Part shown: piece after piece, positions 5,967-27,907 of the stretch | Layout: the number at the start of each line of letters is the position of its first letter | Numbering within the stretch: position 1 is the first letter of the stretch | Assembly: GCA_016205145.1 (NCBI GenBank) | Contig: JACQJH010000001.1 | Coordinates: forward strand, 540,001-572,000 | Direction of reading: 5' to 3' | DNA from: Candidatus Iainarchaeum sp. | GTDB taxonomy: Archaea > Iainarchaeota > Iainarchaeia > Iainarchaeales > JACQJH01 | Length of the DNA: 32,000 bases | The notes under the pieces: model-generated | Database searches by the model: none | What the model was told of the DNA's origin: nothing | The model's input: the letters and a program-made list of their open reading frames with translations, nothing else | Made by a program: the position numbers and the translations under genes

Positions 5967-6058
5967 ACCTGATTTTTGTTCCATTTTTTGGGCGCACCCC
6001 GCCCATTTTTTTCTTTCTTTTGTAAACCCTTAAATGCCTTTTGCGCTTACTGTTTTGC

Positions 6059-7246: not shown

Positions 7247-7277
7247 AATTGCCATATATTTGTAGCTGGTGTGAGCG

Positions 7278-9325: not shown

Positions 9326-9329
9326 ACGC

Positions 9330-10838: not shown

Positions 10839-11045
10839 TATATGGCACCTGACTCTCGCTTTAGCTTTTTTTTTGCGCGGCCCGGCGTTTTTGCACAGCC
10901 ACTTCGTGCTAAATAGGTAAAATCTTTTATTTAATGGTTTTGGATGGGCGAACCAGCAGACGGATGCGCGCCGGCCGTTCCATGTTCCCGGCCCGGCTTT
11001 TTTTTGGATTTCCGGCTTCCGCCTTTTTTTTTGGTTTTTCTGCGA

Positions 11046-12986
11046 ATGAAAAAATTTAAATGCCCCGACATGCTGTTTAATTGCATGCAGGAATTATTCG
11101 GGCGCAGGCTTCTGTTTGCATTGCTGTGCCTTGCCGCGCTTTTTGCCTTGGCGCTTGTCCTCTATCCCATTGCGGGCAAAAGCAATGCGCAACAGGCAAC
11201 CGGTGCACCCGCAGCCAAGGCGATTGCCTCGGCGCCCGGCTGGTCAAATGTCGGCCTGTGCGCCAGCGAGACCTGCGCATTGGACGATGAATGCGTCAGG
11301 AAGTGTGCAACCATAGCGGAAACCGTTTTCCCCGTGGCCTTCGCGGCCGGCTCGGGCTTCGGCCGCGCCGCAGGCAGCAACGTGGGCGAAGACGAACGCG
11401 GCTTGTTCCAGGTGCCCGGCAATTCCGGAAAATGCGGTGCGCCCGCGGTTTTCTATTCCAGGGTTCTGGATGCGGGAAAGGAAACGGATTTCGGGAACAT
11501 CGGATGGTCTTTTTCAGGTTCGCCGGATTTTTCGGTTTCGGTCCGGACAGGCGATTTTGACGGCAATGCGATTGCGTGGTCGGCCTGGTCGGAAAACCTT
11601 TTCGACGGCGTTTCGGCTGCGTCCGCGGTTCCCGGAGAAGGCAGGCTATTCCAGTTCAGGCTTTTTTTCAGGGAAGGCAGATGCGCCAGAATTGAGTCCA
11701 TTGCAATCGGGGAACGCGAAAAAATAACCGTCAAACCGGAAAGCATCGGGGGAAAAAGCCTGCCGAAGAACCTCGACGAGTCCAATCTTGAAAGCCGGTA
11801 CGGCGTGAACAACCACATTTCTTCGGCCACGCTTGGCGCCTTGAGCAAGGCCGGCTTCGGCTGGGTAAGGGATGACATGCCCTGGCAGGAAATCGAGCAG
11901 GCAAAGGGAAAAAAGCTGGTGCCGGAAAAAATTGACCGGTATATTTCCAATGCAAGGGATTTCGGCATGCACGTTCTCCCCGTACTTTCATATGGCACCG
12001 CATGGTGGGCCGCGGAATCGTTCAACCCGCAATCGTTTGCAGATTTTGCCGGCTTTGTCGCCGCAAAATACCGTTTCGGATACTATGAAATCTGGAACGA
12101 GGAAAACCTCGGCAGGTTCTGGGAGCCATGGTTCAACGAGCCGCCGAACCCGAAAAGGTATGCCGCCATATTCAAGGCGGCGTCGGCGCGCATAAAATCA
12201 GTGGAACCTGATGCCAAAATAATCGTCGGCGGAACCGTGGGCGCGGACGCCAATTTCATTGGCGCGCTTTTCGGCGAGGGCATAGCGGACTACGCAGACG
12301 TTGTGGCATTCCACCCGTACAGGTCGGCTTGCCCCATCGAGGAATACCTTGGCGATTTCACAAAACTGAGGGAAACCGTCGAGGCCCGCACGGACAAGCG
12401 CATTGGCTATTGGATAACCGAGGTCGGCTATCAGACAAAGGAAAACGGCCGGGTTTTCGCCCTGGATGAGGAAAGCCAGGCAAAAATGCTGGCAAGGGTA
12501 ATGCTTTTTACGCTCTCGCTTCCGATTGAAAAGGTTTTCTGGTATGATTCCGCGGACTCCGATTCAAAGGACGGCGAGGACAACTTTTACGGCCTGCTTG
12601 GCCGGGATGGCCGGCCGAAGGAATCCTATCGTGCCGCCGCGACAATCATAAGCCTGCTCAAGAACGCCGCGCCCGTGAATGCCTCAGTGGCCGCGGGAAA
12701 ACCCGAAAATCTTGAAGTGCACCTGTTTTCCGTGGAAGACAGGCTTTACCTTGCGGCATGGTATTTTTACGGCTGTGAAAAGGCGCGCGGAATAATGCCG
12801 GTGCGGCCCATAAAGGCGACTGTTGAACTCGGTTCTCCTGACTATCTTGCGCCGACGCAGATCAACATTGAAACCGGCGAAAGAACGCCCTTATATTACA
12901 CACGGCTGAGCAATGGAATCGCGGTTGACATTGCCATCAGCGACATGCCAATATTGATAGAGCTTTCAAAAGCGGGGGCGGCTTGA
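11046..12986 (+). CDS. secreted/anchored glycoside hydrolase, clan GH-A (TIM-barrel, GH5/GH39-like) with an N-terminal beta-rich accessory region
   Basis: A hydrophobic N-terminal segment (RRLLFALLCLAALFALALVLYPIAG). YYEIWNEENLGRFW is an NE-type acid/base motif and GYWITEVGYQT is a TE nucleophile motif, with spacing typical of clan GH-A. The start is uncertain: 10944, 11046 and 11086 are all possible. Confidence 0.75.
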   Translation: MKKFKCPDMLFNCMQELFGRRLLFALLCLAALFALALVLYPIAGKSNAQQATGAPAAKAIASAPGWSNVGLCASETCALDDECVRKCATIAETVFPVAFAAGSGFGRAAGSNVGEDERGLFQVPGNSGKCGAPAVFYSRVLDAGKETDFGNIGWSFSGSPDFSVSVRTGDFDGNAIAWSAWSENLFDGVSAASAVPGEGRLFQFRLFFREGRCARIESIAIGEREKITVKPESIGGKSLPKNLDESNLESRYGVNNHISSATLGALSKAGFGWVRDDMPWQEIEQAKGKKLVPEKIDRYISNARDFGMHVLPVLSYGTAWWAAESFNPQSFADFAGFVAAKYRFGYYEIWNEENLGRFWEPWFNEPPNPKRYAAIFKAASARIKSVEPDAKIIVGGTVGADANFIGALFGEGIADYADVVAFHPYRSACPIEEYLGDFTKLRETVEARTDKRIGYWITEVGYQTKENGRVFALDEESQAKMLARVMLFTLSLPIEKVFWYDSADSDSKDGEDNFYGLLGRDGRPKESYRAAATIISLLKNAAPVNASVAAGKPENLEVHLFSVEDRLYLAAWYFYGCEKARGIMPVRPIKATVELGSPDYLAPTQINIETGERTPLYYTRLSNGIAVDIAISDMPILIELSKAGAA

Positions 12987-13007: not shown

Positions 13008-14690
13008 TTAGCTGCACGCCGTCGCCTGTGCATAAGCTGTCATGGTTATCACGCCGCCGGAATAGGTTCCTGATTCGATTTTGGGGATTGCCATGTACCA
13101 GTACGTGTCCTGTGCCGCGGCCGTGCTTGTCGACACTGTTCCCCGGCCCCAATTATTCAAAATCCGGGAAACGCAGTTCGTGTTCGTTATCGACGTCGAG
13201 TTCGCATTGATGTCGGTCGTCGAAGGCGTTCCAATCTGGCTTGCTTTCCAGTAAATGCTGTCCCCTTCAAGAAAATCAGGGCTTGAGAAAGTCGTGCTCA
13301 TGTACGCGTACACTTTCTCCTCAATGTTTCCGGTATGCGTTACGATTATGCGTTCCGCAGGCGAACCACCGCAGCTAAGGGCAATGTTCGTGTCGGCATC
13401 GGCTTCGAAAGTGCACGAACTCCGGTCCAATGAAATGCCTATTGTAGTGTTCATTGCAACTGCATTTGCAGACTGGGTGTTTGCGCTGTTGCCGGTGTAG
13501 TCCTGGGCAATCATGCCGATGCCGTAGTTTCCGTTCACGTCCTTTACGCTTATGCCGGAATCGCTTGTAAGATCCGGGTCCGGCGGAATCTGGCCGCAGA
13601 TGTTTTCATCCGCCAGGGCCATCGAGGTTTTTGAATTGCCTGTCGAGCAGTCGAAAAACGACGTTGTCCTGTGCCGGTCCCAGGCATTGCCGGAATCCGC
13701 GTCATTCAAAGTGAACGCATTGCTCCACAACAGCATCCTGGAATTTGCGAGGTCGATGCTCGGATTTCCACCCCAGTCGAAAACCGTTGCCTTCAGGCAC
13801 AGGTAATCGGTTCCCGGAGTGAAGCCGCTGACGCTTGTTGCGGACGTGGCAAACTCGGTTGACGTGCACGCCGACGAGGATTTTGTAAGATAGAGTGCGG
13901 AAACCGACGGGCTCTTGTTGTCCACGTACGCGAAATTCCGGTCATCCTGACCGATGATGGCAAGTTCTGCGCCGGCGCTGTTAAGCTGGTAGGCACGGAC
14001 GACAATGTTGTAGTCGGATGTCCGGTCAAGCAGGACGTTTTCGTCGTACTCGCAGTAAATCGGCGCCCCCCAGCCGGCAAGAGGCCTTTCAGTGTTTTCG
14101 CCGGATGGCTGCAGCCTGCATGGATAAGGCGTCTTCCTTGAATTGAATTCCGGGGCGGCCTCGAGTGACTGGCCGCTGCGCTGGATGAAAACATTCAGGT
14201 CATAACCAGGGTTTGTGGAGCAGGCGGCGTCGTCTGACGAATTGATGACATTTCCGTCAGTGGAACAATAAAACGGCGTTCCCTCGAAGGTAATGTTCTT
14301 GTCGAAAATCACCTGGTTCTGCTCCGGCCTCACTATGTTGATATCCGCGTACATCTGGTCGTCTTCGCCGTCGCCGTCGTTGTCCTTGCCCGTCGTGCAC
14401 GGCAAAACTATCGGATAGCCGCCGCAAAGCCCGACGGTGGGGTCGCTGCATGTATCATAGGGCGTGCACGGCGTGAGGATTGGCAGGCACGTTGCAAGGT
14501 TCTGGTAGCCGCCGCAGTCAAATGCATTGCAGCAGGTCGCGTCCCCCGGGCACGGGTCATCAGTGCACGTCGGATAAAAACAGCATTCGTCGGCATTCGT
14601 TGCCGGAAACAAAAAAACCAGGGCAAGAAAAGCCGTGAACGCGAACAGAAGCGCGGTTTTCAGTGCCGGTGCAAGCCTGTCATTTGACAT
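13008..14690 (-). CDS. secreted modular surface protein P560: signal/TM, ~70-aa Cys-rich head, unique region, shared module A, shared C-terminal module B
   Basis: Signal region ALKTALLFAFTAFLALVFLFPATNA. Cys-rich head: DECCFYPTCTDDPCPGDATCCNAFDCGG...CTPYDTCSD. Module A (..GFTPGTDYLCLKATVFDWGGNPSIDL..NAWDRHRTTSFFDCSTGNSKTSM..) is shared with 16279..17583 and 19081..20118. Module B (..THTGNIEEKVYAYMSTTF...TAYAQATACS) is shared with 19081..20118. Confidence 0.75.
   Translation of the reverse strand: MSNDRLAPALKTALLFAFTAFLALVFLFPATNADECCFYPTCTDDPCPGDATCCNAFDCGGYQNLATCLPILTPCTPYDTCSDPTVGLCGGYPIVLPCTTGKDNDGDGEDDQMYADINIVRPEQNQVIFDKNITFEGTPFYCSTDGNVINSSDDAACSTNPGYDLNVFIQRSGQSLEAAPEFNSRKTPYPCRLQPSGENTERPLAGWGAPIYCEYDENVLLDRTSDYNIVVRAYQLNSAGAELAIIGQDDRNFAYVDNKSPSVSALYLTKSSSACTSTEFATSATSVSGFTPGTDYLCLKATVFDWGGNPSIDLANSRMLLWSNAFTLNDADSGNAWDRHRTTSFFDCSTGNSKTSMALADENICGQIPPDPDLTSDSGISVKDVNGNYGIGMIAQDYTGNSANTQSANAVAMNTTIGISLDRSSCTFEADADTNIALSCGGSPAERIIVTHTGNIEEKVYAYMSTTFSSPDFLEGDSIYWKASQIGTPSTTDINANSTSITNTNCVSRILNNWGRGTVSTSTAAAQDTYWYMAIPKIESGTYSGGVITMTAYAQATACS
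13166..13239. repeat. 74-nt patch nearly identical (2 mismatches by eye) to 19239..19312, inside otherwise diverged paralogous genes
   Basis: gggaaacgcagttcgtgttcgttatcgacgtcgagttcgcattgatgtc[g/a]gtcgtcgaaggcgttcc[a/g]atctgg is present at both loci. It encodes ...QIGTPSTTDINANSTSITNTNCVS on the minus strand. Confidence 0.85.
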
Positions 14691-16206
14691 AGATTTCTAT
14701 CCTGTTGGCAATTCCTTTAAGCGAATATGCCTTGTCCATTCCGTGGCATGACAGCTTCCACCGGAATTCCTTTCCCTGGTGCCCGTCCCTGAAAATTTGC
14801 GAGACAGCATACTTTTCCATTGACGAAAAAATTTTTTTACAATCCCCGGAATCGATGGCATCCGTTGTTTCAGTGAGCATTTCCTTGTCAGGGGTTCCCA
14901 TTCTCGCGGCAGGCACGGGTGACACTTTAAGGCCCGTCAGGACGTTGATAGCGCGCCCGCTTTCGGGAAATGCGAGAACCGCGCCGCCCGAACCATTGGC
15001 TTTGAGCCATTCAATGGCATGCTTTTGCGCGCCGGAATCAAATGCCCTGGCGCCCGAATCCCGTGCTTCGCCTTGCTCCGACACAAGCCCTGATGCGGGC
15101 ACCGCCAAAAGCAACAGCGCGGCAACCGCGAAAAACGTTCCCGAATGCTTTCCTGAAAAAAACCTTTCCATGATGAAATAAAACCCGAAGCCCGCGAACA
15201 GCGATGCAAAAAGGGAGAACAGGCTGAAAAGCCTTGCCGCCGGCGCAAGAAAAGAATAGCCGTTGGTGGTGAAAAGCACGAACAGCGCGCTCAAAAAAAA
15301 CGCCTCAACCACAAGCGGCACTATTTCATCGGCGGGCTTGCGCATGAACGCCAGGCCGGCCAGTCCAACCACCGAAAAAATCATGATAAGCGGGCTCACC
15401 CCCGAAAAAATGTTGAGGTTTTTTTCCGACACGGAATACGGCTCGAAAAAGAACGATTTCACCATTTCATCGGCCTGTCCCGTGCCATTGCTCAGGAAAT
15501 CCGTGTACGCGTAGAAAAGCGCCGGCACCACCGCAAGCGCGAGGACGAAAAAAATCTTGTGCCTCAGGAATGCCCTTATGTCAATGAGAAAATAAAACGC
15601 GAAAAGCGGCGCCAGAAGCAGGCTGTAAACGGGATAAATCGCGGTTCCGCCGGCAAGAACCGTGAAAAACGCCAGCAGGAATTTTTTGGATTCCGCGGAC
15701 CTGAAAAACAGGTAAATCAGAAGCGGCACCATTGCAAGGCCCAATCCCATCGGCGCAAAATACCGGAAGCCGAGCAGGAAAGCCGTGGGCTTCATGGCAA
15801 GCACCGCCAGCGCCGAGAAAATTCCCGCGGCAGGGCTCCTGAGGAAATGCCTTACCAAAATGAACGTCGAAAGCATGGCGATGAAAGTAACTATTGTGGG
15901 AAAAATCAGCGACAGGGCGAATGCGTCCAGGCCCGTGAAAATGACAAGCAATGCCATGAGGGCATGGAACCCGAATTCGGGGTTCTCAAACAATGCCTGT
16001 TCCTCCGAATGCACGTAATATGGTTCCTGCGCGGCAAGGGATTTTCCGGCAACCATGCCGTTGATTATCGCCACATGGTCCCATGAATCAGCGACAAGCG
16101 GAAAAGGATGTGAAACATAAATCGCCCCGCCGGCGAGGAACGCGCTTGACAAAAACAGCAATGCTATCGCAAATTTTTCCACTGTTTCCACCGGAAAACC
16201 GTTCAC
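14680..16206 (-). CDS. polytopic integral membrane protein (~11-13 TM) with a C-terminal soluble domain; GT-C-fold glycosyltransferase-like or polymerase-like (inferred)
   Basis: Continuous hydrophobic segments span the first ~370 aa. An acidic motif sits in the first loop (PLVADSWDH), and a ~130-aa hydrophilic C-terminal domain follows. Its stop overlaps the start of 13008..14690 by 11 nt. No WWDYG-type AglB motif was seen. Confidence 0.7.
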   Translation of the reverse strand: MNGFPVETVEKFAIALLFLSSAFLAGGAIYVSHPFPLVADSWDHVAIINGMVAGKSLAAQEPYYVHSEEQALFENPEFGFHALMALLVIFTGLDAFALSLIFPTIVTFIAMLSTFILVRHFLRSPAAGIFSALAVLAMKPTAFLLGFRYFAPMGLGLAMVPLLIYLFFRSAESKKFLLAFFTVLAGGTAIYPVYSLLLAPLFAFYFLIDIRAFLRHKIFFVLALAVVPALFYAYTDFLSNGTGQADEMVKSFFFEPYSVSEKNLNIFSGVSPLIMIFSVVGLAGLAFMRKPADEIVPLVVEAFFLSALFVLFTTNGYSFLAPAARLFSLFSLFASLFAGFGFYFIMERFFSGKHSGTFFAVAALLLLAVPASGLVSEQGEARDSGARAFDSGAQKHAIEWLKANGSGGAVLAFPESGRAINVLTGLKVSPVPAARMGTPDKEMLTETTDAIDSGDCKKIFSSMEKYAVSQIFRDGHQGKEFRWKLSCHGMDKAYSLKGIANRIEIYVK

Positions 16207-16278
16207 AAGATTAATGTTTTTTCATATAAAAATCTGTTGCGGCAAAGCAATTCTTCCGCGTTGCCGGTCCACCAATTT

Positions 16279-17583
16279 TTATTTTTTGCCCCCGGCTTTC
16301 CAAAGCCTTGGCGCCACTCCGAAAACCTCAAGCAATGAAACAAGGACGCCGGCGGGCTGGGCCAGCAGGAGCCCGGCCATGACTGCAATGAACGCGAAAA
16401 AAAACGCGAACGCCGTTTTTTGCGGTATTGACAGCGCCTTATTCAGCAGGGGCCTGCGTTTAAGCGCGAAAACCCCCCTGCTCCTGTAGAAAATTATCAT
16501 GAACACTGCGAGGCCTGAAACCCAGAGCAGGGAAAAGTCTTCCGTGTCCAGTTTTTTCCCGATTTCCCTTGTAACCGGAACCGACACCGCGATGCCCGTT
16601 CCAGGCACACGCACGCTCCGTTTCACGATTGCCGGGGCGGGCGTCACAGTGAAAGAGGCCTTTGTAGTTATTTCCACATACTTTATCAGAACAGTGTAAG
16701 CGCCCGGTCCGGAGGGCTTGAATTCAAATTCCCATTCCGAAACCGGCAATTTTTCCACGTGCCCGTCCGGAAAAATCATGAAAACCGAAACCCCTGAAAC
16801 GGAAACGTTTTCGTCTGACACTGAAATCGTTATTTTCTGCGTCTGATCGGATTCGATGGCCGGAAACTCCAGGGAAACCGCTGCCTGCGGCTTGCGTTCC
16901 ACGGGCTTGGCCGGCGGCAATCCCCCGGAACCAGGCGGCGACACGGTTCCGCCGCCGGCCTGCGACACCGTTGCCGCGGGCGTGGAAGCCGAAGCGCAGT
17001 TTGCAATCGACGTGGAGAATGCAACCGCGTTTGAAACGGTTTGCGTGGCCGGCGCATTCCCTGCATTGGTGTCCTGGACAACGGCCTTAACGCTCCACGC
17101 GCACTTGCTTATCGATGAAAGGCTGATTGAAACCGAGCCGGGGGAAATCTGAGCGCAAAACGATTCGTCGGAATTCGCCATAGTGGTTTTTGATGCGCCG
17201 GTTGAACAGTCGGCAAAGCCGACGGAATCCGTGGAAATCCGGATGTAATCCCACGAATTGGAATTGTTGTCCTCGGAAATCCTGTCCGCGACGGCAACCA
17301 CGAAATTGCTGTCTGAAAGCGAAATAGTCCTGTTTCCGCTTGAATCCCTTGCCTCGACCCTAAGGCACAGGTAATCCGTTCCCGGAACAAAACCCGTTGT
17401 TGAAATTGCTTCGGAGGCAAAATCGGATGCGGTGCAGTTGGAATCCGCTTTGGCCACGTACAGGCCGGAAATGCCCGGGGCATCGTTGAGGACAACCCCC
17501 GAAACGGTTATCGTGGACGCCGCGGCGTAGCTTATGAAAATCAGCATCAAGGCCGCGGCCGCAAAAAAATTTTTTTCCAACAT
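16279..17583 (-). CDS. secreted modular surface protein P434: signal peptide, shared module A, Pro/Gly linker, Ig-like domain, two C-terminal TM helices
   Basis: Signal peptide MLEKNFFAAAALMLIFISYAAA. Module A: GFVPGTDYLCLRVEARDSSGNRTISL..NSWDYIRIS..FADCSTGASKTTM. Linker: GGGTVSPPGSGGLPPAKP. C-terminus: LLWVSGLAVFMIIFY...FAFFFAFIAVMAGLLLA. Confidence 0.75.
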   Translation of the reverse strand: MLEKNFFAAAALMLIFISYAAASTITVSGVVLNDAPGISGLYVAKADSNCTASDFASEAISTTGFVPGTDYLCLRVEARDSSGNRTISLSDSNFVVAVADRISEDNNSNSWDYIRISTDSVGFADCSTGASKTTMANSDESFCAQISPGSVSISLSSISKCAWSVKAVVQDTNAGNAPATQTVSNAVAFSTSIANCASASTPAATVSQAGGGTVSPPGSGGLPPAKPVERKPQAAVSLEFPAIESDQTQKITISVSDENVSVSGVSVFMIFPDGHVEKLPVSEWEFEFKPSGPGAYTVLIKYVEITTKASFTVTPAPAIVKRSVRVPGTGIAVSVPVTREIGKKLDTEDFSLLWVSGLAVFMIIFYRSRGVFALKRRPLLNKALSIPQKTAFAFFFAFIAVMAGLLLAQPAGVLVSLLEVFGVAPRLWKAGGKK

Positions 17584-17640
17584 CGCCTTCAGGATATACT
17601 AATCACTTTTAGAATATAAACGTGGGTAAACGCGGGCGGC

Positions 17641-19059
17641 TTATCTCTTGTGATGCGGCCCTTCAAGCCTGCGCATCTGTGCGTGCACCTTGCCGACTTC
17701 ACGGTAGGTTGCCCCCAATGCAATCAGAAGAATGACCACGAGCACCGCGACAAGATACGGCCAATAGCTGGCGCGCGCGCTTTTTTCGGCTTCAAGCCTT
17801 GCCGCCTGCGCCTCCAGTTCAAGGTCCTTCTTTTCGACAAGATTCCTGAATTCCCTGACTATTTCCTCGGACTGGCTGAGCTGCAACTGCCTTACGCCGT
17901 AATTGAGAACGACGGGAACCATGAAAAGGCCCGCTTTTTCAACCGAAACCCTGTTGCTTATCTTGTAGCTTATCTCCTTGACTACGTCCGGTTCAAGGTC
18001 CCCCGCATAAAGCTCGAAAACCGCCGGGCTTTCGCTTATGAGGTTGAAACCGTAATCCGAGGTCGTGTTCGAAAGGCTCGGCACAAGCTGTTCCGGAATG
18101 TATTCCAGCAGGACAATGTTTTTCAGCTGGCTTCCGGCGTTGTTCTGCAGGAAAATCTTAACGTTCGTCTGGTAGTAGGATTTGCCGCCCGCAATGTCCC
18201 TTACGTATATGGACTCGAAGTTGCGCGTAACGGAAACCCTGTTGCGCAATTCCAGGACCGTTGCGATTTTTTTGCGGTCGGTCAGGCCGGCCATTCCAAG
18301 CACAGATTCAATCTGGCCGGCATGCGCATCATCCATTATCCTCTGGCCTTCGACAATGGAAAAATATTCAGTCGTCTTCTGCCCGAGCACTGACACTGCA
18401 GGAAGGCCGTTTCCGGTTTCCCTGGCTTTTGCAAAGAATTCTTCCAGAAGCGCTTCCGCCAGCTGGTAGTTTTCGGAACCAATGTTGTCATTGATCGACA
18501 GCAGCCTTGTCCTCAGGCCGCTTATCTCTGGCTTCGCTTTCGAGTATTCCGCCAAAAGCTGCATTTCCTTGAGCGACGAAACCCTGTGCGAAAGGCCTTC
18601 GAACACGGCTGAAGCCATCCTGAGCTGTGAATTGAAAAAAACGCTTCCCTTCGTTCCATTCACCGATTCCTTGGCAGGCAAACCGCTTTCGGTCGTGTTC
18701 ACCTTGACGCTGGCGCACACCCTGATTGCGGCACCCATCTTTTCCGTGCCCTTTCCGGATTCGGCAATGCAGACATTGGCGGTCTTGTAAATGCCGTCAT
18801 AAAACGCCACCATGAATTCAGCAGTCGAATTCGCGGGAATAACCTCGGAATCAGAGGACGCGATTGCGCCGCCCGCGAACCCCGAGGCATCAAACGAAAC
18901 CTGCACGTCCTTTGCAGTGTTGTTTATCGCTGAAACCGTCAGGACATTGTTGATATTGTCAACCGATGCGCTGGACGGGGAAATTGTCAGGGCCTGCGCG
19001 CAGGAAAAAACAAGAACAATGGAAAAAACCAGAAAAGCCAGCCTTGGCGTCCAAATCAT
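17641..19059 (-). CDS. secreted, C-terminally anchored surface protein; paralog of 9330..10838 but lacking the Cys-rich module
   Basis: Signal peptide RLAFLVFSIVLVFSCAQA. LTISPSSASV...AAIRVCASVKVNT aligns with the N-domain of 9330..10838. It has the same helical middle (EYSKAKPE..) and beta-rich domain. A coiled-coil LELEAQAARLEAEKSA precedes the TM helix WPYLVAVLVVILLIALGA. Confidence 0.75.
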   Translation of the reverse strand: MIWTPRLAFLVFSIVLVFSCAQALTISPSSASVDNINNVLTVSAINNTAKDVQVSFDASGFAGGAIASSDSEVIPANSTAEFMVAFYDGIYKTANVCIAESGKGTEKMGAAIRVCASVKVNTTESGLPAKESVNGTKGSVFFNSQLRMASAVFEGLSHRVSSLKEMQLLAEYSKAKPEISGLRTRLLSINDNIGSENYQLAEALLEEFFAKARETGNGLPAVSVLGQKTTEYFSIVEGQRIMDDAHAGQIESVLGMAGLTDRKKIATVLELRNRVSVTRNFESIYVRDIAGGKSYYQTNVKIFLQNNAGSQLKNIVLLEYIPEQLVPSLSNTTSDYGFNLISESPAVFELYAGDLEPDVVKEISYKISNRVSVEKAGLFMVPVVLNYGVRQLQLSQSEEIVREFRNLVEKKDLELEAQAARLEAEKSARASYWPYLVAVLVVILLIALGATYREVGKVHAQMRRLEGPHHKR

Positions 19060-19080
19060 TCATTCGCCTCAAAAATTGTT

Positions 19081-20118
19081 TCAAGAGCACGCAGTGCCCT
19101 GGGCATAAGCTGTCAGGGTTATGACGCCCCCGCTGTAATCGCCGGGGCTGACAGCCGGAACCGCCATGTACCAGTACGTGCTCTGTGCCGCGGTCGCGCT
19201 TGTCGATTGGGTGCCCCTGCCCCAGTTGCTCAAAATCTGGGAAACGCAGTTCGTGTTCGTTATCGACGTCGAGTTCGCATTGATGTCAGTCGTCGAAGGC
19301 GTTCCGATCTGGGCAGCCTTCCAGTAAACGTGCCTGCCGTCAATGACATCCGGGGTTGAAAACGTTGTGCTCATGTACGCATACACTTTTTCCTCGACAT
19401 TGCCGGTATGGGTTATGGTTATTTTTTCCTGCGGCGAACCGGAACAGTCCATTGCGACGTTCGCGTCCGGGCTTGCAGTGAAAGTGCAGGAACTCTGGTC
19501 CAGGGAAATGCCCGTGGTGGTTTCAACCGTTACCGAGTTGGCAAGACTTGAATTTGCCCTGCCGTAGTTGACGTCCGAGATATTTGCCTTGACATCCCAT
19601 CCTGCGCCGTTGATGTCCTTCACGCTGATGCCGCTGTCGGAAGTGGAATCGGAATCCGGCGGAAGCTCGCCGCAAAACTTGGTGTCGCCGGCCGACATAG
19701 TGGACTTGGCCGCGGCTGTCGTGCAGTCCTCAAACGTGGTTATCTTGTGCCTGTCCCAGCCGTGTGCGGAATTTGCCTGCGCTTCAGTCGCGCTGTTGGA
19801 ATCCGACCAGATGAGAATGTTCGTGTCGCTCAGGGACAATGAAATCGTGTCGTTGCCGTTCGGATCGGAAACAGTGACCGTAACGCACAGCGCGTCCGTG
19901 CCGGGAGTGAATGCGGCAATGCTCGTGCCGCTTGCAGGATAATCGCCGCCGTCGCACGTGCCATCGGTTTCGTTGACAATGAAAACGCTTGAAATCGTGG
20001 GCGCGCTGTTTGAAATCGTCCCGCTCACGTTCACTGTTCCCGCAAACGCATATGCCGCAATAAAAGCGATGAGGAAAACCGCAATGGCCGCCGCCAGAAA
20101 CCTTTTTTGCGACGTCAT
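19081..20118 (-). CDS. secreted modular surface protein P345: signal peptide + module A + module B (the minimal family member)
   Basis: Signal peptide RFLAAAIAVFLIAFIAAYAFA. Module A: AFTPGTDALCVTVTVSDPNGNDTISL..HGWDRHKITTFEDCTTAAAKSTM. Module B: ITHTGNVEEKVYAYMSTTF...GGVITLTAYAQGTACS. Confidence 0.8.
   Translation of the reverse strand: MTSQKRFLAAAIAVFLIAFIAAYAFAGTVNVSGTISNSAPTISSVFIVNETDGTCDGGDYPASGTSIAAFTPGTDALCVTVTVSDPNGNDTISLSLSDTNILIWSDSNSATEAQANSAHGWDRHKITTFEDCTTAAAKSTMSAGDTKFCGELPPDSDSTSDSGISVKDINGAGWDVKANISDVNYGRANSSLANSVTVETTTGISLDQSSCTFTASPDANVAMDCSGSPQEKITITHTGNVEEKVYAYMSTTFSTPDVIDGRHVYWKAAQIGTPSTTDINANSTSITNTNCVSQILSNWGRGTQSTSATAAQSTYWYMAVPAVSPGDYSGGVITLTAYAQGTACS
19239..19312. 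repeat. partner of the 74-nt near-identical patch at 13166..13239
   Basis: See 13166..13239. The flanking sequence of the two genes is clearly more diverged. Confidence 0.85.
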
Positions 20119-20435
20119 TTTCTTTTCTGCCTCTTGCCGAACAAAGTCTCTATTTCAAAAATCTCGTATGCCGCGAGGATTATTATAAGGAAAGAAACTA
20201 TGCTGAAAACGTACTTGAAACTCCCGATGATCTGCGGAAGGCCGAAAAAATCAACGGCAATGCCGACAACCTGTGAAACGACCATGAGCGAAACAAAAAC
20301 CGCGAAAAGCAGGCCGACCTCGCGCTCGATGCCTTCCCTGAAAAACCTGTCAAGCTTGAAGACCGCGATTACCGCGAGAATTCCGACAAATACCGTGATT
20401 CCGGACAATACAAGCGAAAGAGAGTCAATAGGCAT
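20115..20435 (-). CDS. small 3-TM membrane protein, first gene of the surface operon
   Basis: Three hydrophobic stretches (LSLVLSGITVFVGILAVIAVF, GLLFAVFVSLMVVSQVVGIAV, FSIVSFLIIILAAY). Its stop overlaps the ATG of 19081..20118 by 4 nt. Confidence 0.6.
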   Translation of the reverse strand: MPIDSLSLVLSGITVFVGILAVIAVFKLDRFFREGIEREVGLLFAVFVSLMVVSQVVGIAVDFFGLPQIIGSFKYVFSIVSFLIIILAAYEIFEIETLFGKRQKRK

Positions 20436-20475: not shown

Positions 20476-20672
20476 ATATTGCACTATTTCATATAAATAT
20501 TTTATGCAAGGAATAACCTATGATACCCATTTCATATGTCTGATTTTTTGCCCAAAATGCATTTTTTGGCACGTTTTTTGGCATTCTGTTGCGGGCTTTT
20601 TAAACCGGATTTTTTCATATTTTTTTTCCGGGTTCGCGAACAAATAAAATCCCTTTTATCCAGGTTTTTGTC

Positions 20673-21278: not shown

Positions 21279-21443
21279 GCCCCTGTGGTGTAATGGACAG
21301 CATCTGGCCCTCCGGACGCCGTTTCGGCGGCGTGATGCGAGGCACTATGCTCCTTTCAGTCGCATAGCGCTGGCTCGCTAACGCTCGCAATTGTCAAGGT
21401 GGAAGCGAGGCCAGGATCCGGGTTCGAATCCCGGCAGTGGGCG
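21279..21443 (+). tRNA. tRNA-Arg (anticodon CCG) interrupted by a ~92-nt intron at the canonical 37/38 position
   Basis: Hand fold, element by element:
- Acceptor: GCCCCTG pairs with CAG(T)GGGC.
- D arm: U8, then stem GTGT/GCAT with loop AATGGACA.
- Anticodon arm: stem TGGCC (21305-09) pairs with GGCCA (21409-13); loop C-T-CCG-G-[intron]-A.
- Variable loop: GGAT.
- T arm: CCGGG-TTCGAAT-CCCGG.
- Discriminator: G21443.
The mature length would be 73 nt. Confidence 0.8.
21316..21407 (+). other. tRNA intron (archaeal endonuclease-type), boundaries +/- 1-2 nt
   Basis: This is the sequence between G37 (21315) and A38 (21408). It contains internal hairpins (CGCCG-TTT-CGGCG; GCACTATGC...GCATAGCGC). 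I could only pair 3 of 4 bp of a canonical bulge-helix-bulge central helix by eye. Confidence 0.6.
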
Positions 21444-21789
21444 AAGCCGCCACAGCCGGCTGGTCTGGGCGCCATGCAGGGCATGGCCTGCGCCTGATGG
21501 CGAAGCCGCTTCCGTCCGGCTCGCCGCCACGTCCGGGCGCGTTTTCGACCGCGCGTGCCGAAACCAAGGCATATTGCTGTGCAATATGCCGAGTATTCCG
21601 TTAAAGCTTTCGGGGGTTTGCAAGGGGTGCAACCCCTGCAGCGCAGGCTCGCTTCGCTCGGACGGCTGGTTCGGAACCAATTCGCATCACCATTGTGATA
21701 CGCCGGGCAAACAACCGGTAAAATGCCTGAAATGGCAATCGACGAAGTTTTGTGAAAGCATAAAAGCGCTTGTCTTTCGCTTTTGTTTT

Positions 21790-22125
21790 ATGGTTAAGCG
21801 GGGCCATGAAGTTGATTGGGTGGAATGCCTGAGTGAAACTGACACGCTTTTTGTGAGGCTTGTCTACGAACAGGATTCCGTTGAGCTGGTCGGGTTTGCA
21901 CTCGTTTACGTTGCCGAACTTGGCGGGAAATTCATTGAAGTGGCAAAATTTGACGCCGGCCCGCACGAACCTGTGAATGCCCATTATTATTTCAAAAACC
22001 CGCCTGAGAAACGGCATCTGAACGGGGAAAAAAGCATTGAAACCGTTGACGCGCTTGCCGGAATGTTAAGGGAAAAATGGGTGTTTTACCGGGCAAAATT
22101 CGTTGAGAATCACCCGTTTATTTAG
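21790..22125 (+). CDS. TumE/DUF6516-like small protein; copy 2 of 3
   Basis: MVKRGHEVDWVECLSETDTLFVRLVYEQDSVELVGFALVYVAELGGKFIEVAKFDAGPHEPVNAHYYF... Only this 3' third of track ORF 21391..22125 matches the paralogs. The 5' part of that ORF runs across the tRNA and a GC-rich structured region. Confidence 0.65.
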   Translation: MVKRGHEVDWVECLSETDTLFVRLVYEQDSVELVGFALVYVAELGGKFIEVAKFDAGPHEPVNAHYYFKNPPEKRHLNGEKSIETVDALAGMLREKWVFYRAKFVENHPFI

Positions 22126-22133
22126 ATAAATTT

Positions 22134-22167
22134 ATATAACCTAATAGGTTATATTTTATTGTGGTTT
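22134..22167 (+). promoter_or_regulatory. perfect palindrome ATATAACC-TAATA-GGTTATAT, then the 14-mer TTTTATTGTGGTTT, upstream of the wHTH gene
   Basis: The arms at 22134-22141 and 22147-22154 are exact reverse complements. The 14-mer at 22154-22167 is identical to 8599-8612. Confidence 0.4.
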
Positions 22168-22178
22168 CCTTGGAAAAT

Positions 22179-22529
22179 ATGAAAAAACTCGTAATCGTCG
22201 TGGGCGGGGACATGGGTCAGGACCTGCGCAAATTCATGAAAAATCCGGACAAAAAAGAGTTTGGCACACAAAGAGTTTACGTCAAAACCTTTGATGAGGT
22301 TCGAAGAGTGCTTTCCCCGCAGAAGCTTGACATGCTTTGCCGTTTCAGCAAAGGCGAATTTGGCAACCTGACCGTCGGCGAAACAGCAAAGCGACTGAAC
22401 CGCAAACAGGAAGCCATAAGCAGGGACGTTTCCGGCCTCGCCAGGCACGGCCTGATCAAAAAAACCAAAAAGGGCAGGCAGGTCCTGCTGAGCGCGCCGT
22501 TCAAGTCGATCGAGATTAGATTCTCATAA
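22179..22529 (+). CDS. winged-helix DNA-binding protein, partner of 21790..22125; copy 2 of 3
   Basis: MKKLVIVVGGDMGQDL...VYVKTFDEVRRVLSPQKLDMLCRFSKGEFGNLTVGETAKRLNRKQEAISRDVSGLARHGLIKKTKKGRQVLLSAPFKSIEIRF. It shares the '..F(D/E)...VLSP(K/Q)KLD(L/M)L......ETAK...RKQEA(I/V)SRD...L...GL(I/V)...K.G' layout with 22942..23340. Confidence 0.75.
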   Translation: MKKLVIVVGGDMGQDLRKFMKNPDKKEFGTQRVYVKTFDEVRRVLSPQKLDMLCRFSKGEFGNLTVGETAKRLNRKQEAISRDVSGLARHGLIKKTKKGRQVLLSAPFKSIEIRFS

Positions 22530-22588
22530 GTCAGTCAATTGACGAATTCTTCAGGCAGGATAAAAAGGCTTTCTTCACGCCATTTGTC

Positions 22589-22921
22589 ATGCCGGTTGAA
22601 ACACTCTTCAAACGCAGGGCGCTTTCTGAGAAAGATGCCATTTTCTACAGTTTCGATTTTGACACCGAAGCAAAAGAACTTGTCCGTTTTTGTGCAATTC
22701 AACTGCTGGAAATGCGCGGTAAAACGCACGAAGTGATAAAATTCGACGCCGCGCACGGAAAATGCCATGTTCACCGATACTGCAAGTTTGCGGAACACAA
22801 GGAAACAATCGGCATGAAAATTTCGCCCGAAACACTCAAGATTTGCAGAAAAGACATTGCGGAAAACTGGCAAAAGTATAAGGGCTGGTATCTAAAAAAG
22901 CGCCCTGAAACAAGCCTTTAA
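22589..22921 (+). CDS. TumE/DUF6516-like small protein; copy 3 of 3
   Basis: See 8615..8935. A 10-bp palindrome GTCAATTGAC (22534-22543) lies upstream. Confidence 0.65.
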   Translation: MPVETLFKRRALSEKDAIFYSFDFDTEAKELVRFCAIQLLEMRGKTHEVIKFDAAHGKCHVHRYCKFAEHKETIGMKISPETLKICRKDIAENWQKYKGWYLKKRPETSL

Positions 22922-22941
22922 TAACATTCGGGTTATACTAT

Positions 22942-23340
22942 ATGTCTGTCATGCAAAAATCCCAAGCCATAGAAAAGCCGAAAGAGGAGGAGCCCTTCAC
23001 CATAATCATCGGCGGCAATGAGGAAAAGGATTTGGACGATTTTTTCTCCGGAAAATCAACCGACCAGCCCAAGGACGTGCTTTATCTGGACACTTTCGAG
23101 CAACTGCACGAGCTTTTGTCGCCTAAAAAGCTTGATTTGCTGAAATGGCTCATGGACCTGCCGAAAAACCACAAGCCTTGCTCAGTTTCCGACACCGCAA
23201 AAAAAATCAAACGCAAGCAGGAAGCCGTGAGCCGCGATTTGAAACAACTGAAAAAGCTCGGCCTGGTCGAACTCAAAAAGGACGGGCAGAAAACCATTCC
23301 GACGCCGAAATTCAGGCGCATCGAAATAATCGTGAAATAA
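22942..23340 (+). CDS. winged-helix DNA-binding protein, partner of 22589..22921; copy 3 of 3
   Basis: ...VLYLDTFEQLHELLSPKKLDLLKWLMDLPKNHKPCSVSDTAKKIKRKQEAVSRDLKQLKKLGLVELKKDGQKTIPTPKFRRIEIIV. Confidence 0.75.
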   Translation: MSVMQKSQAIEKPKEEEPFTIIIGGNEEKDLDDFFSGKSTDQPKDVLYLDTFEQLHELLSPKKLDLLKWLMDLPKNHKPCSVSDTAKKIKRKQEAVSRDLKQLKKLGLVELKKDGQKTIPTPKFRRIEIIVK

Positions 23341-23412
23341 TCTTTCAAAAACCGCAAAAAGCCTTTTCCGGGGCAAATGGCGTTGAGAAATATATCAACA
23401 AATAAGTTCAAA

Positions 23413-23754
23413 ATGAAATACGACGACGAATACGATTACCTCTACTTTTACGACAGAGTAAACAGGTCATCTTCCGGCATAGAATGGGGCAACCTTGACA
23501 TTTCATACGACAAAAACGGAAACATCGTCGGGTTGTCAATTGAGGGCGCGTCCTCATTTCTGACAAACCTGACAAACAGGAAAATAACGAAAAACGCGCT
23601 GGCAAAAGCGGTTTCCGGCAGGCTCAAAATAAGGGAAAAAGCGGGAATCATTTACCTGACATTCATAATCAACCTCGAAAACGAGGCTCCGATAGAGGAC
23701 ACGATAACGGTCAAGTCCATAAACTACAAGTCGCCGCTGACCGAAACCGCCTGA
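23413..23754 (+). CDS. DUF2283-like small protein
   Basis: MKYDDEYDYLYFYDR......ISYDKNGNIVGLSIEGAS matches the 'YD.E.D.LY.....D..G.IVG(I/L)(E/S)I..AS' pattern I associate with DUF2283. The track ORF starts upstream at 23377. Confidence 0.55.
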   Translation: MKYDDEYDYLYFYDRVNRSSSGIEWGNLDISYDKNGNIVGLSIEGASSFLTNLTNRKITKNALAKAVSGRLKIREKAGIIYLTFIINLENEAPIEDTITVKSINYKSPLTETA

Positions 23755-23778
23755 ATATTTCCGGTGCAACCCTTAAAA

Positions 23779-23802
23779 GCACTATTTGCACTAAATTTAG
23801 TG
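23779..23802 (+). promoter_or_regulatory. operator-like element: GCACTA direct repeat and a perfect 14-bp palindrome CACTAAATTTAGTG, 12 nt upstream of the RHH-type gene
   Basis: GCACTA occurs at 23779-23784 and 23788-23793. The palindrome spans 23789-23802. A TATA-like CTTAAAAG at 23772-23779 lies just upstream. Confidence 0.4.
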
Positions 23803-23813
23803 TAAGTGGTGTC

Positions 23814-24050: not shown

Positions 24051-24134
24051 CCTTTCGGATTGAACTAAAACGCGAAAAACAAAAAACCCGTTAACGCGAA
24101 ATTCAAAAGGATTGAGATAAAGATAATGTGACTG

Positions 24135-25211: not shown

Positions 25212-25227
25212 TATTTGATTGGTATTT

Positions 25228-25965
25228 ATGGCTACTTGGCTTGATTCGCTAAAAGAAAGTTATGTCCTACTATTGACTACTCACCCTAGGAGTAATGTTA
25301 AGCTCGTACCGCCACATAGTTGGATTAGGAATAGATTGCAAGAGTTGTTGCCAAAGGATTTTGTGTGCTATTCTTTGGATAATGATGCGTCTAAAAGCAA
25401 AGAGAAGAAAATTAATGGCAAATTTTATGAAAAAACTGTTGATGTGGCCATTTTTAGAAAAGCAGTTCCTGTGGGCGCAGTTTCTTTTAAATTTGTGGCC
25501 TCTAATTATTCACAAAATTCTAATAATTACTTTGAAAACTTGATTGGCGAATGTTTCAATGTTCAATCAGAAGGAATCCCTTTTTGCCATGTTTTTGTAG
25601 TGCGCGATAAAATTCCATATTACAATAAAGATAGAGTAGTAACCAAATATGAAATTCTTACTGAACACAATTTAGATAAGTATCTTAGGTTGGCAAGTGC
25701 CGAATCTAATGATGCAGTTCCTTCTAAGTTGGCAATTACTATAATTAAAATTTCGGGGGATGAAGTTAGCGGGGATATTATTCACCCGATAGACTTCCAA
25801 ACACTATCTAATTCAAAAAAAGAGGCGATTAAAGGAAATATCTCAGTTGATTTTTCTGATTTTAAAATTTATCAAAAGGATATTAAAGAAAAACTTGAAT
25901 TGCTAAATATTAATAAAATTTTGAAAGAGTTTGTCGAAATAGTGGTCTCTAAAAACAAGCAATAG
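25228..25965 (+). CDS. putative type II restriction endonuclease (PD-(D/E)xK-like)
   Basis: It converges on and overlaps the methyltransferase gene by 17 nt. TVDVAIF-x10-GAVSFKFVASNYSQNSNNYFENLIGE looks like a D...SxK nuclease core. The assignment rests mainly on context. Confidence 0.6.
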   Translation: MATWLDSLKESYVLLLTTHPRSNVKLVPPHSWIRNRLQELLPKDFVCYSLDNDASKSKEKKINGKFYEKTVDVAIFRKAVPVGAVSFKFVASNYSQNSNNYFENLIGECFNVQSEGIPFCHVFVVRDKIPYYNKDRVVTKYEILTEHNLDKYLRLASAESNDAVPSKLAITIIKISGDEVSGDIIHPIDFQTLSNSKKEAIKGNISVDFSDFKIYQKDIKEKLELLNINKILKEFVEIVVSKNKQ

Positions 25966-27907
25966 TCAATTGCATATTTTGTTTTTTTGTACTATTTTTA
26001 GAATTAAAATATAAATTTTCCAAATAGTTGTCTATTTTATCTTTGCTCTGTTCTTCCGATAAGAATGCCAAGTCATGATTAGTAAGCCGCGGTATGCCAA
26101 AATTTTTTATGAATGTTTTTGCGAATGATTTGTAGCCGCCGCGATAGTCTTTGCTTGTTTTTTTTATGTAGTAATCCATAATGCTGGAATTTAGGATTTT
26201 TATAAGTACTTCTTTATCGCCTGAATAAAAAATAGAATATCCTGCATAAAATAAAGCGTCTTTTTTTGTACATAAAATGTAATTTGGGCTATTTGCAATA
26301 TTTGGCGTAATTATTTTTTCCCCAAATGAATTGTCAATGCCTTGTGATCGCCCATATATATACCAGGGGGTAATGTTATTTTTACCTTTGTCTCTTTTTG
26401 CAAGCTCGTCTTTTATTGATAGAAAATATTTGTAACAATTTGGAAATATTTTTGCTAATTCATGTTCTGGTAATGCCCGATACTTTTTTCCGATTTTTTG
26501 ATATGGGAAAATTATTCTTCTTTTATTTTTGATTATGTCCTGTTCATTTTTAACTATACTGGCTTTGATAATTTCTTTAGTTATGCCTTTTTCTATCACA
26601 TATTTTGTTTCATTTGAATATTTTATGTAACAATCTTTTTCTAGTTTTGAAGAATCTAATAAATACAAATTATCTTTTAGGGTTGCAATACCAACACTAA
26701 TCCTGGCAATTTTGCCAAGTGGTTCGCCTATTTCTTCTATTTTTTTTATTTTCATTTGGTCTTCGTGCATTAGTAGGTTCCATTTTTCTGGATTTAGTGC
26801 CTTGGTAACAATTGGTGAAAAAGTAAATGTGCCTTTTGTAAACTTATTTATGTTTTCGATTAGGGCGTAGTCAAAACTTTCTTTGTTTTTTTTATTTAGT
26901 ATAGTTATAGATGTGTAAGTGCTAACATCTTGGAAAATTTGTAAATGGTTAAAGTTTACTATCTGGCGGATTAAATTTTTTGTTTGTAAAAACTTTCTTA
27001 GTTGTTTTCCCGCGAGCGATGCAAAGTAGCTATTTGGGGTAATGTATCCTAATGAGCCATTTTTATTTAATAGTTGGATGCCTAACTCAAAAAATGGAAT
27101 AAATAGGTCGACATTTCCAGTACTTGCAGTGGCCCAGTTACTGCTTATTTTATTTCGCACGTTCTCTTGTAAATTTTGTATTCTAACATAAGGTGGATTC
27201 CCGATTATTGTATCGAATCCGCCATTTTTATCAAATACTTCTGGGAATTCCTTTTTCCAATTAAAAGTATTAGGGTCTAAGCTATCGCCCAGTTTTATAT
27301 TGAATATTATTTCTTCTTTGTCTTCGCCATTTTCTAGTGCTAACAATGACAATATTGTTTTTGTCCTATTTACATTGCTTTCCAATATGTCTACTCCAAA
27401 TATGTTATTTTCAATTATCTCGATAATTGGTTTCTTGCCTAATTTAGCTAATTTTTCTGTTGCCAATACCAAAAATGCACCGCTACCACAAGAACAATCG
27501 CAGACGATCAAATTATGTTTTTTAATCGTCTGATTATTTATGTAGTTAATTATGAATTCAGGGGTATAAAACGCCCCATTTAATTTACGATCTTTTGCTT
27601 CAATTAATAGTTCGAATATGCGTTCTATGTTTTTCAGGGTAATTTGGTTGGCATCATATGGGAGCTGTTTTTTTAGTTTTGAATAGTTTTCACTATCTAT
27701 TTTTTTTAGCATGTCGAGAATTAACTTGTTTTTCGGTTTTAGAATATTGTTTGCTTCTAAAAAAAAGGTTATTAGTCCGGCCTCTATTTGATCTATGGGG
27801 AAATTTTTTTGTAACTGAATTATGGAATTTGCGTTTATCAATTTGTCACGATGATTGTTCAGGTTTCTTTTTCTTATATTTGTTTTCGGAACCATATTTC
27901 CCCTCAT
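25949..27907 (-). CDS. N6-adenine DNA methyltransferase, gamma class (Eco57I/TaqI-like) with a large C-terminal target-recognition region
   Basis: GAFYTPEFII is motif X-like. VCDCSCGSGAFLV is AdoMet motif I. FDTIIGNPPYVRIQNL is catalytic motif IV (NPPY). Confidence 0.9.
   Translation of the reverse strand: MRGNMVPKTNIRKRNLNNHRDKLINANSIIQLQKNFPIDQIEAGLITFFLEANNILKPKNKLILDMLKKIDSENYSKLKKQLPYDANQITLKNIERIFELLIEAKDRKLNGAFYTPEFIINYINNQTIKKHNLIVCDCSCGSGAFLVLATEKLAKLGKKPIIEIIENNIFGVDILESNVNRTKTILSLLALENGEDKEEIIFNIKLGDSLDPNTFNWKKEFPEVFDKNGGFDTIIGNPPYVRIQNLQENVRNKISSNWATASTGNVDLFIPFFELGIQLLNKNGSLGYITPNSYFASLAGKQLRKFLQTKNLIRQIVNFNHLQIFQDVSTYTSITILNKKNKESFDYALIENINKFTKGTFTFSPIVTKALNPEKWNLLMHEDQMKIKKIEEIGEPLGKIARISVGIATLKDNLYLLDSSKLEKDCYIKYSNETKYVIEKGITKEIIKASIVKNEQDIIKNKRRIIFPYQKIGKKYRALPEHELAKIFPNCYKYFLSIKDELAKRDKGKNNITPWYIYGRSQGIDNSFGEKIITPNIANSPNYILCTKKDALFYAGYSIFYSGDKEVLIKILNSSIMDYYIKKTSKDYRGGYKSFAKTFIKNFGIPRLTNHDLAFLSEEQSKDKIDNYLENLYFNSKNSTKKQNMQLTIACF

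Follow-up and report, generated by a model that had tools for sequence, protein, structure and literature searches.

A conserved gene cluster for modular secreted proteins in Candidatus Iainarchaeum, with a possible division into tip, shaft and membrane anchor

We analyzed a 32,000-nucleotide (nt) stretch of the genome of Candidatus Iainarchaeum sp. (assembly GCA_016205145.1, contig JACQJH010000001.1, positions 540,001 to 572,000), referred to here as the window and providing all coordinates below. An original prediction from the sequence had placed in it, between positions 13008 and 20435, six minus-strand genes for a family of modular secreted proteins laid out like the tip, shaft and anchor of a surface fibre, plus an accessory partner. 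All six open reading frames (ORFs) are present with exactly these coordinates (NCBI locus tags for genes of the window, HY394_02795-02815), and the conserved unit reaches further, adding P680 and P502. The genes are as follows, A and B being the two modules described below and A+B genes those coding for both.

20115..20435, minus strand: P106, small membrane protein with three transmembrane (TM) helices; first gene of the cluster
19081..20118, minus strand: P345, Sec signal peptide, N-terminal strand motif, modules A and B, no anchor; proposed repeating (shaft) subunit
17641..19059, minus strand: P472, conserved partner of the A+B genes, 21 nt after P345
16279..17583, minus strand: P434, no module B; proposed membrane-proximal base or anchor
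14680..16206, minus strand: P508, polytopic with ca. 11 TM helices, its C-terminal domain being soluble
13008..14690, minus strand: P560, signal peptide, Cys-rich head, modules A and B, neither strand motif nor anchor; proposed adhesin at the distal end (tip)
10944..12986, plus strand: P680, membrane-anchored PslG/GH39-like glycoside hydrolase, convergent with P560
9330..10838, minus strand: P502, paralogous to P472 and sharing its three-domain layout, with a TM helix at the C terminus, a Lys-rich tail and an extra Cys-rich insert

Three of the products share modules. P345 and P560 are 56% identical over 311 amino acids (aa) (E 2e-121), P345 and P434 36% over the N-terminal ca. 200 to 250 aa (E 1e-29), and P560 and P434 39% over 168 aa (E 2e-27). 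These similarities are far beyond chance and bear out the shared modules that had been proposed, whose motifs (FTPGTD.LC, D..GN..ISL, WD, DC.T..K and YSGGVIT.TAYAQ.TACS) are present in the alignment. Hidden Markov models (HMMs) of the modules recovered the nested architectures as well, namely A+B for P345, head+A+B for P560 and A only for P434, while hydropathy agreed with the signal peptides, the C-terminal TM helices of P434 (two, possibly three), the anchor of P472 and the polytopic nature of P508. In P345, module A spans residues ca. 38 to 200 (nt 19519-20007) and module B residues 201 to 345 (nt 19084-19518). The head of P560 contains 16 Cys (residues ca. 33 to 255, nt 13926-14594) and is followed by A (nt 13440-13925) and B (nt 13011-13439). 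P434 consists of a signal peptide, the strand motif, module A (nt ca. 16999-17475), a Gly/Pro/Ser linker, a small beta domain that module HMMs and hhalign distinguish from module B, and two to three C-terminal TM helices. No relationship was detected by hhalign between A and B, between the Ig-like region of P434 and B, or between either module and the P472 domains or the head.

The modules differ in how they vary. Identity in module B was 64 to 74% whatever the paralogue type (74% between P345 and P560, 64% between P345 and its orthologue), while module A splits by type, with 41% between paralogue types versus 72% between orthologues. Recent gene conversion between the two B modules was ruled out (79% DNA identity, no long identical tracts). 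Heads are interchangeable, being Cys-rich, cohesin or repeat-rich: in other family members, one of the latter two replaces the Cys-rich head at the same position.

Members without a head share a short motif, [VILM]x[VI]x[GAT]x[VI]xNxxP (in summary form, VxVxGxVxNxxP), located 1 to 5 residues past the predicted signal-peptide cleavage site. It was found in 11 of 11 head-less members, and its first half was missing in all four that bear a head. The cluster contains two copies.

19999..20034, minus strand: N-terminal strand motif of P345, VNVSGTISNSAP (residues 29 to 40), a candidate donor strand, conserved yet unpacked in the monomer model
17476-17511, minus strand: N-terminal strand motif of P434, ITVSGVVLNDAP, before module A

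Across 15 proteins from the window and related loci (designated L001, L002 and so on), the distribution of parts followed a simple rule. Seven had the motif and module B without a TM helix, four had a head and module B with neither motif nor TM helix, and the remainder, three P434-type proteins and one unrelated anchored protein of L011, had the motif and a TM helix without module B. Thus, none of the anchored members had module B, and none of the B-containing members had an anchor. In format and position, the motif matches the donor strands of the Fim subunits of Escherichia coli K-12 (FimA, VHFKGEVVNAAC; FimF, ITIRGYVRDNGC; FimG, VTITVNGKVV), and the FimH tip adhesin of the same strain has no such strand. 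Moreover, the central small residue co-varies per genome, being Gly in both P345 and P434 and Ala in both the A+B protein P0017 and the anchored L011 protein.

A polar chain with the strand as donor and B as acceptor would be expected to give such a three-class pattern: the tip would only accept, the shaft would accept and donate, and the base would only donate. The constancy of module B would likewise be expected of a common acceptor or interaction surface. Our preferred explanation, held tentatively and at a little below an even chance, is that the locus encodes a Sec-secreted polar surface fibre or short stalk made of paralogous subunits, specific to Iainarchaeota (DPANN) and provided with a tethered partner. 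P560 (variable head, A and B, no free N-terminal strand) would be the distal adhesin, P345 (strand, A and B, no anchor) the repeating subunit, and P434 (strand and A, no B, C-terminal TM helices) the membrane-proximal base. Subunits would be joined non-covalently, in the manner of donor-strand complementation, the N-terminal strand of each one pairing with module B of its distal neighbour. The protein of the P472 family would be an obligatory membrane-tethered partner, either helping to assemble or hold A+B subunits or serving as the anchor in lineages without a P434-type gene, and P508 and P680 would be lineage-specific accessories.

The partner recurs beside A+B genes in several of the related loci, which are composed as follows.

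L001: a divergent A+B paralogue with P434, P508, P560, P680 and P502 types, in rearranged order
L008: a P508 type adjoining a P434 type
L005, L006 and L007: an A+B gene followed after 4 to 15 nt by a P472-family gene, with a second copy in L006
L010/L011: a protein with head, A-like module and B (at least 617 aa), the A+B protein P0017, a 221-aa protein with signal peptide, Ig-like domain and TM helix, and a 425-aa anchored protein

An A+B gene was followed by a P472-family gene within 21 nt in four loci, that is, in the window (21 nt), L005, L006 and L007, the A+B proteins of these loci being only 33 to 41% identical among themselves. Conservation of this linkage in four diverged loci bears out the accessory partner that had been suggested. 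P434 has orthologues in L001 (464 aa) and L008 (476 aa), P560 in L001 (543 aa), and P502 in L001, L005 and L006. Overall, the deep core consists of an A+B protein and a tethered partner, and the tip and anchor elaboration recurs in distant relatives, while P508, P680 and P106 are lineage specific or unlinked. The analogy to tip, shaft and anchor gained from its recurrence in the very distant L010/L011, where the 425-aa anchored protein resembles the family only in the N-terminal strand region, and from the presence-absence rule for strand, B and anchor; structural comparison gave generic matches (see below).

P472 itself has a signal peptide, an Ig-like domain with a conserved Cys pair (residues 22 to 125), a helical region of ca. 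150 aa, a second beta domain (276 to 400) and a C-terminal part with a short coiled coil, a TM helix (433 to 451) and a basic tail. No PapD, DUF916, DUF3324 or DUF5305 signal was detected in seven members of its family (E ≤ 1), and no relatives in the PDB were found beyond coiled-coil noise. A word-indexed search with P472 or P508 returned the query only, a weak negative, given that it missed known 41% homologues. The Cys-rich insert of P502 (residues ca. 386 to 432; C..D.DC.D...CT.D.C....C) stands just before the TM anchor, as it does in the partner encoded at 11131-12783 of L005 and in the 425-aa protein at 3207-4484 of L011; it had weak matches to ADAMTS_CR_2, DUF7107 and Dicty_CTDC. Another small gene, P186 (20673-21233, plus strand), is divergent from the cluster and codes for a signal or TM segment and an Ig-like domain with two Cys, bearing a faint likeness to the N-domain of P472 (hhalign probability of 14% over 96 aligned columns).

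In order to examine the fold of the modules, P345 was modelled with AlphaFold2. A model from 5 sequences was unusable (predicted local distance difference test score [pLDDT] of 49), and we used one from 10 sequences (pLDDT, 78.7; predicted template modelling score, 0.68), which shows two all-beta domains, with pLDDT values of 85 to 93 in module A and <50 at residues 25 to 33. In this model, A and B are beta-sandwich domains. Foldseek, the comparison that had been suggested for them, returned a tandem Ig-like fold against the PDB, and TasA, thread and Tafi pilins were absent from the top 50 matches. The matches were weak and generic (E about 1e-4 to 1e-3, template modelling [TM] scores of 0.15 to 0.29), led by a donor-strand-complemented CfaE-CfaB pilin fusion (E 2.6e-4, probability of 0.97, TM score of only 0.29) and including SafDAA and CsuC-CsuE (E about 1e-3, TM scores of <0.3). 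Equally generic tandem Ig-like matches were obtained against the viral library BFVD. The modelled A+B fold is thus compatible with pilins and adhesins without being decisive.

Several points weigh against a strand-joined fibre. The same Foldseek list contains integrin, MSCRAMM, arrestin-fold and PorU matches, again weak and generic. By DSSP, the modelled module B has ca. 9 strands, so that it may be a complete sandwich. The motif, for its part, could be just strand A of module A, as head-bearing members retain its second half (YVDNxSP). No P434-type gene was present in the available sequence of L005 and L006, which makes the three-part scheme non-universal, and in L002, the A+B gene had no P472 gene downstream before the contig end. 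Finally, the family is tiny.

The same set of genes could instead encode a non-polymeric display complex at the cell surface, in which anchored P472, P502 and P434 would hold single secreted A+B proteins, those with different heads serving as individual adhesins or ligand binders, in the manner of CscA holding WxL proteins or of cohesin-dockerin display. Such an arrangement would account for the tight linkage between A+B and P472 genes, for the P472-type protein being the sole anchored component seen in L005 to L007, and for the constraint on module B, which binding to a shared partner fits equally well; a complete beta-sandwich in B would also suit it. Cohesin domains point in the same direction: L005 encodes an A+B protein with an N-terminal cohesin domain (8994-11126), and ahead of it another cohesin-domain protein of 203 aa that has a TM helix at its C terminus. 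However, display alone leaves unexplained why the P434 type retains strand and A and drops B, why an unrelated anchored protein of L011 retains only the strand region, and why the strand is absent from every head-bearing form, and we found no WxL, DUF916, DUF3324 or dockerin signal. We consider this arrangement, the main alternative to a fibre, somewhat unlikely; if it holds, the locus would still define, in a phylum hardly characterized so far, three or four new families of surface proteins.

The rarity of the family bears on another possibility. An HMMER profile search of 1.84 billion representatives gave 14 matches, 10 of them strong, and a word-indexed search of 5.8 billion proteins gave four A+B proteins only. 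The named sources were exclusively metagenome-assembled genomes of Iainarchaeota/Diapherotrites (DPANN), the second one being a Candidatus Iainarchaeum of the same phylum. No relatives were found in viral contigs (two scans) or in two metagenome scans, and a scan of GTDB genomes added no new contig. A mobile-element or viral origin was rejected, as tblastn against phages and plasmids gave no match. In Pfam and NCBIfam, all cluster proteins, 10 A+B members and 7 P472-family members yielded the cohesin head in one protein and otherwise weak generic Ig-like or helical matches, and sequence and profile searches of the PDB with A+B, P472, P508 and the P560 head gave nothing meaningful. Modules A and B matched no enzyme or S-layer family in Pfam, NCBIfam or the PDB; a confident match of that kind was what the original prediction had named as speaking against it.

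This absence of any sequence relation to S-layer proteins in Pfam or the PDB is one reason why we regard as improbable a two-component S-layer, with A+B proteins as the outer canopy and the P472 type as the membrane-anchored stalk, comparable to SlaA/SlaB of Sulfolobales. P345 is small, exchangeable heads and an anchored form without B would be unexpected of a lattice protein, and the family is far rarer than would be expected of the main wall protein of a phylum. What recommends the idea is the composition of P472 (beta-sandwich domains, a helical and coiled-coil stretch, a C-terminal TM helix) and the position of its gene directly after the A+B gene, together with weak spectrin-like SbsC matches in two members and the Ser/Thr-rich, acidic and sequon-containing nature of the proteins. 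The likeness to SlaA/SlaB is a loose one of a secreted protein followed by a stalk-protein gene with beta-sandwiches, coiled coil and C-terminal TM helix; the domain order is different, and SlaA/SlaB lack the multiple head-bearing and anchored paralogues seen here.

By every sequence test run, the cluster lies outside the chaperone-usher, Csc/WxL, TasA/bundling-pilus, thread, Tafi/DUF1102, type IV pilus and SlaA/SlaB families, and, at least in its layout, it resembles chaperone-usher pili and, among archaea, Tafi. The original prediction held that no archaeal equivalent had been described, which is outdated: haloarchaeal Tafi have a proposed tip, core and anchor (PMC11821415, PMC12337348). The proposal comprises the tip TafC, the adapter and core subunits TafE and TafA, and the anchor TafF, whose N-domain is pilin-like and whose C-terminal part has three TM helices (PMC11821415). 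Assembly by donation of an N-terminal strand is known from a solved pilus structure of Natrinema TafE and has been modelled in Haloarcula (PMC11821415, PMC12337348). Strand donation also joins the subunits of other archaeal fibres, namely threads, bundling pili and cannulae (PMC9715654, PMC9245690, PMC12518558).

Tafi and the Sec-type, DUF1102-containing tafi-like loci of Thermococcus and Archaeoglobus have, as here, a two-domain tip, a beta-sandwich core and an anchor with a core-like N-domain, and the Tafi anchor ends, like P434, in about three TM helices, an agreement at the level of architecture only (P560, P345 and P434 versus TafC, TafA and TafF). In contrast, no DUF1102, TafA or TafE match was found (Pfam with 10 members, PDB profiles and the top 50 Foldseek matches), signal peptides at the locus are Sec-like with Ala-x-Ala-type cleavage and no RR motif, while those of haloarchaeal Tafi are of the Tat type, and neither a SipW-like signal peptidase (TafD) nor a DUF5305 protein (TafG) was found among the ORFs scanned in the window. 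The subunits here have two domains, and the P472 partner has no counterpart in Tafi. Polarity would also be reversed, given that in Tafi the core strand is modelled as entering the anchor, whereas here the anchor bears the strand and lacks B.

Chaperone-usher pili (Fim, CFA/I, Saf and Csu) have several parts in common with the layout proposed here: a tip adhesin that lacks a donor strand and has its receptor domain at the N terminus, a mature N terminus forming an alternating-hydrophobic strand with a central Gly (a sequence pattern only), a subunit serving as terminator or base, and a neighbouring gene for an Ig-like accessory protein. The best, if weak, fold matches were to such pili (CfaE-CfaB, SafDAA and CsuC-CsuE; TM scores of <0.3). 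The locus differs in that no Fimbrial, PapD (PF00345/PF02753; E ≤ 1) or Usher (PF00577) match was found in the ORFs scanned, there is no outer membrane, the subunits have two domains, and P472 is membrane tethered with a long helical stalk. Threads (Saci_0406/0405), AbpA and CanA are, like the proteins described here, Sec-secreted archaeal beta-sandwich subunits; they are joined by donor-strand complementation and have an adjacent paralogous cap gene (PMC9715654, PMC9245690, PMC12518558). There was no sequence match to them, they were absent from the top 50 Foldseek matches, and neither a membrane anchor nor a partner protein has been identified for them. Likewise, neither TasA/camelysin (Peptidase_M73) nor a Saci_0406-like subunit was matched by Pfam or PDB profiles or appeared in the Foldseek top 50.

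The parallel drawn originally with Csc/WxL clusters of Firmicutes held for the layout, in which genes for secreted proteins with a common C-terminal domain adjoin one for an Ig-like protein that ends in a TM helix and basic tail. It did not extend to sequence, with no WxL signal (PF13731) in 10 A+B members (E ≤ 0.1 to 1) and no DUF916 or DUF3324 signal in 7 P472-family members (E ≤ 1). These archaea have no peptidoglycan, and the strand rule and the B-less anchored paralogue are without counterpart in Csc. As for type IV pili and archaella, the signal peptides are class I-like rather than class III, and no ATPase or platform gene was found around the cluster in the window.

Assembly machinery and membrane anchoring are largely unknown in the archaeal strand-donation fibres described so far (threads, bundling pili, cannulae and Tafi), and host attachment by DPANN archaea is poorly understood at the molecular level. 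Against this background, the locus offers a compact and conserved set of orphan proteins with a clear and testable division of labour, one of them a candidate anchor and another a candidate assembly factor tethered to the membrane. If a polar fibre is indeed formed, it would represent a new fibre-subunit family, a genetic handle on assembly and polarity and a likely adhesion organelle in Iainarchaeota. A bolder version, which we find doubtful, would see in it a further class of strand-donation fibre in archaea, without sequence relation to the others, confined to DPANN/Iainarchaeota and used by ultra-small cells for host or surface attachment. Its complete, linked parts list would be an exchangeable-head tip, a two-domain shaft, a membrane anchor bearing the strand and an Ig/coiled-coil assembly factor tethered to the membrane. 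In this factor, archaea would then have their first functional equivalent of a pilus chaperone.

Among the accessory genes, P680 has a clear enzymatic signature. Its catalytic region (residues ca. 294 to 575) matched PDB entry 5jvk (2.7e-24) and PslG (8.8e-13), with Pfam GH39 reaching only an E value of 0.081, and its true start is likely M35 (nt 11046), judging from the L001 orthologue. P680 and A+B genes are in synteny in three loci (the window, L001 and L002), an association among close relatives only. The first external loop of P508 (68 aa) contains invariant D40/W42-D43-H44 and EPYY, and genes of this type adjoin P560- or P434-type genes in L001 and L008. One homologue had a weak DUF6541 match (E 3.6e-4), and no relatives of P508 were detected in the PDB or NCBIfam. 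A role as a GT-C-like glycosyltransferase or assembly platform is a guess, and the GT-C idea could not be substantiated. P106 had no Pfam or NCBIfam match, and in L002/L003, a different gene stands in its place upstream of the P345 orthologue. As none of the related loci conserves P106, it is unlikely to belong to the core.

Taken by themselves, the PslG-like domain of P680, syntenic in three loci, and P508, with its GT-C-like topology, conserved acidic first loop and weak DUF6541 match, could suggest a glycan-handling surface module with these two proteins as the functional core and the A/B proteins as carbohydrate-binding or scaffold accessories. This would leave the deeper conserved pair, A+B with P472, outside the core, given that P680 and P508 occur in the closest relatives only; no carbohydrate-binding module or enzyme signal was found in A, B or the heads, and P508 is without a detectable relative in the PDB or NCBIfam. 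We regard such a module as very improbable.

The six minus-strand genes had been described as an operon. Overlaps of 4 nt (P106/P345) and 11 nt (P508/P560) and gaps of 21 nt (P345-P472), 57 nt (P472-P434) and 72 nt (P434-P508) agree with this description, while TATA-like boxes suggest up to three transcription units and make a single operon uncertain. The heptamer TTTATAT occurs 12 times in the window versus 2.7 expected from shuffling (a ca. fourfold excess) and lies 20 to 60 nt upstream of several start codons, its sites including 16224, 17614 and 20491 on the minus strand and 22131 on the plus strand; in this genome, it probably serves as the TATA box. Within the cluster, it is found on the coding strand 5' of P106, P434 and P508.

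20491..20497, minus strand: TATA-like box TTTATAT, upstream of P106 (56 to 62 nt from the start); candidate promoter of P106-P345-P472
17614..17620, minus strand: TATA-like box TTTATAT, upstream of P434 (31 to 37 nt from the start); candidate internal promoter
16224..16230, minus strand: TATA-like box TTTATAT, upstream of P508; candidate promoter of P508-P560

The spacing of the last box suits the 500-aa NCBI start of P508 better than the GTG at 16206. The junction between P345 and P472 has a GAGG ribosome-binding site and no TATA box. This arrangement suggests up to three units (P106-P345-P472, P434 and P508-P560); because the box precedes P106, P434 and P508 and is missing between P345 and P472, three units are as likely as one operon.

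Some other features of the window deserve mention. Two tandem MacB/FtsX-type ABC permease genes (6041-8471, plus strand) lie just upstream of P502, and no link between them and the cluster could be shown. A tRNA-Thr(TGT) (2688-2785, minus strand) is, at 98 nt, too long for a plain tRNA and probably contains an intron. On the other side of the cluster, ARAGORN with introns allowed found a tRNA-Arg(CCG) (21279-21442, plus strand) with a 92-nt intron at the canonical 37/38 position, missed by the default tRNA scan and by Rfam at the gathering threshold. The ORF at 21391..22125 overlaps this tRNA, so that the DUF7718 gene probably starts near 21790. Downstream of the tRNA (21800-30000) are two tandem pairs of DUF7718 and HVO_A0114-type helix-turn-helix genes and, beyond them, a low-GC island (29 to 34% versus about 53%) with an Eco57I-type restriction-modification methylase (25949..27907), which may be an element integrated beside the tRNA.

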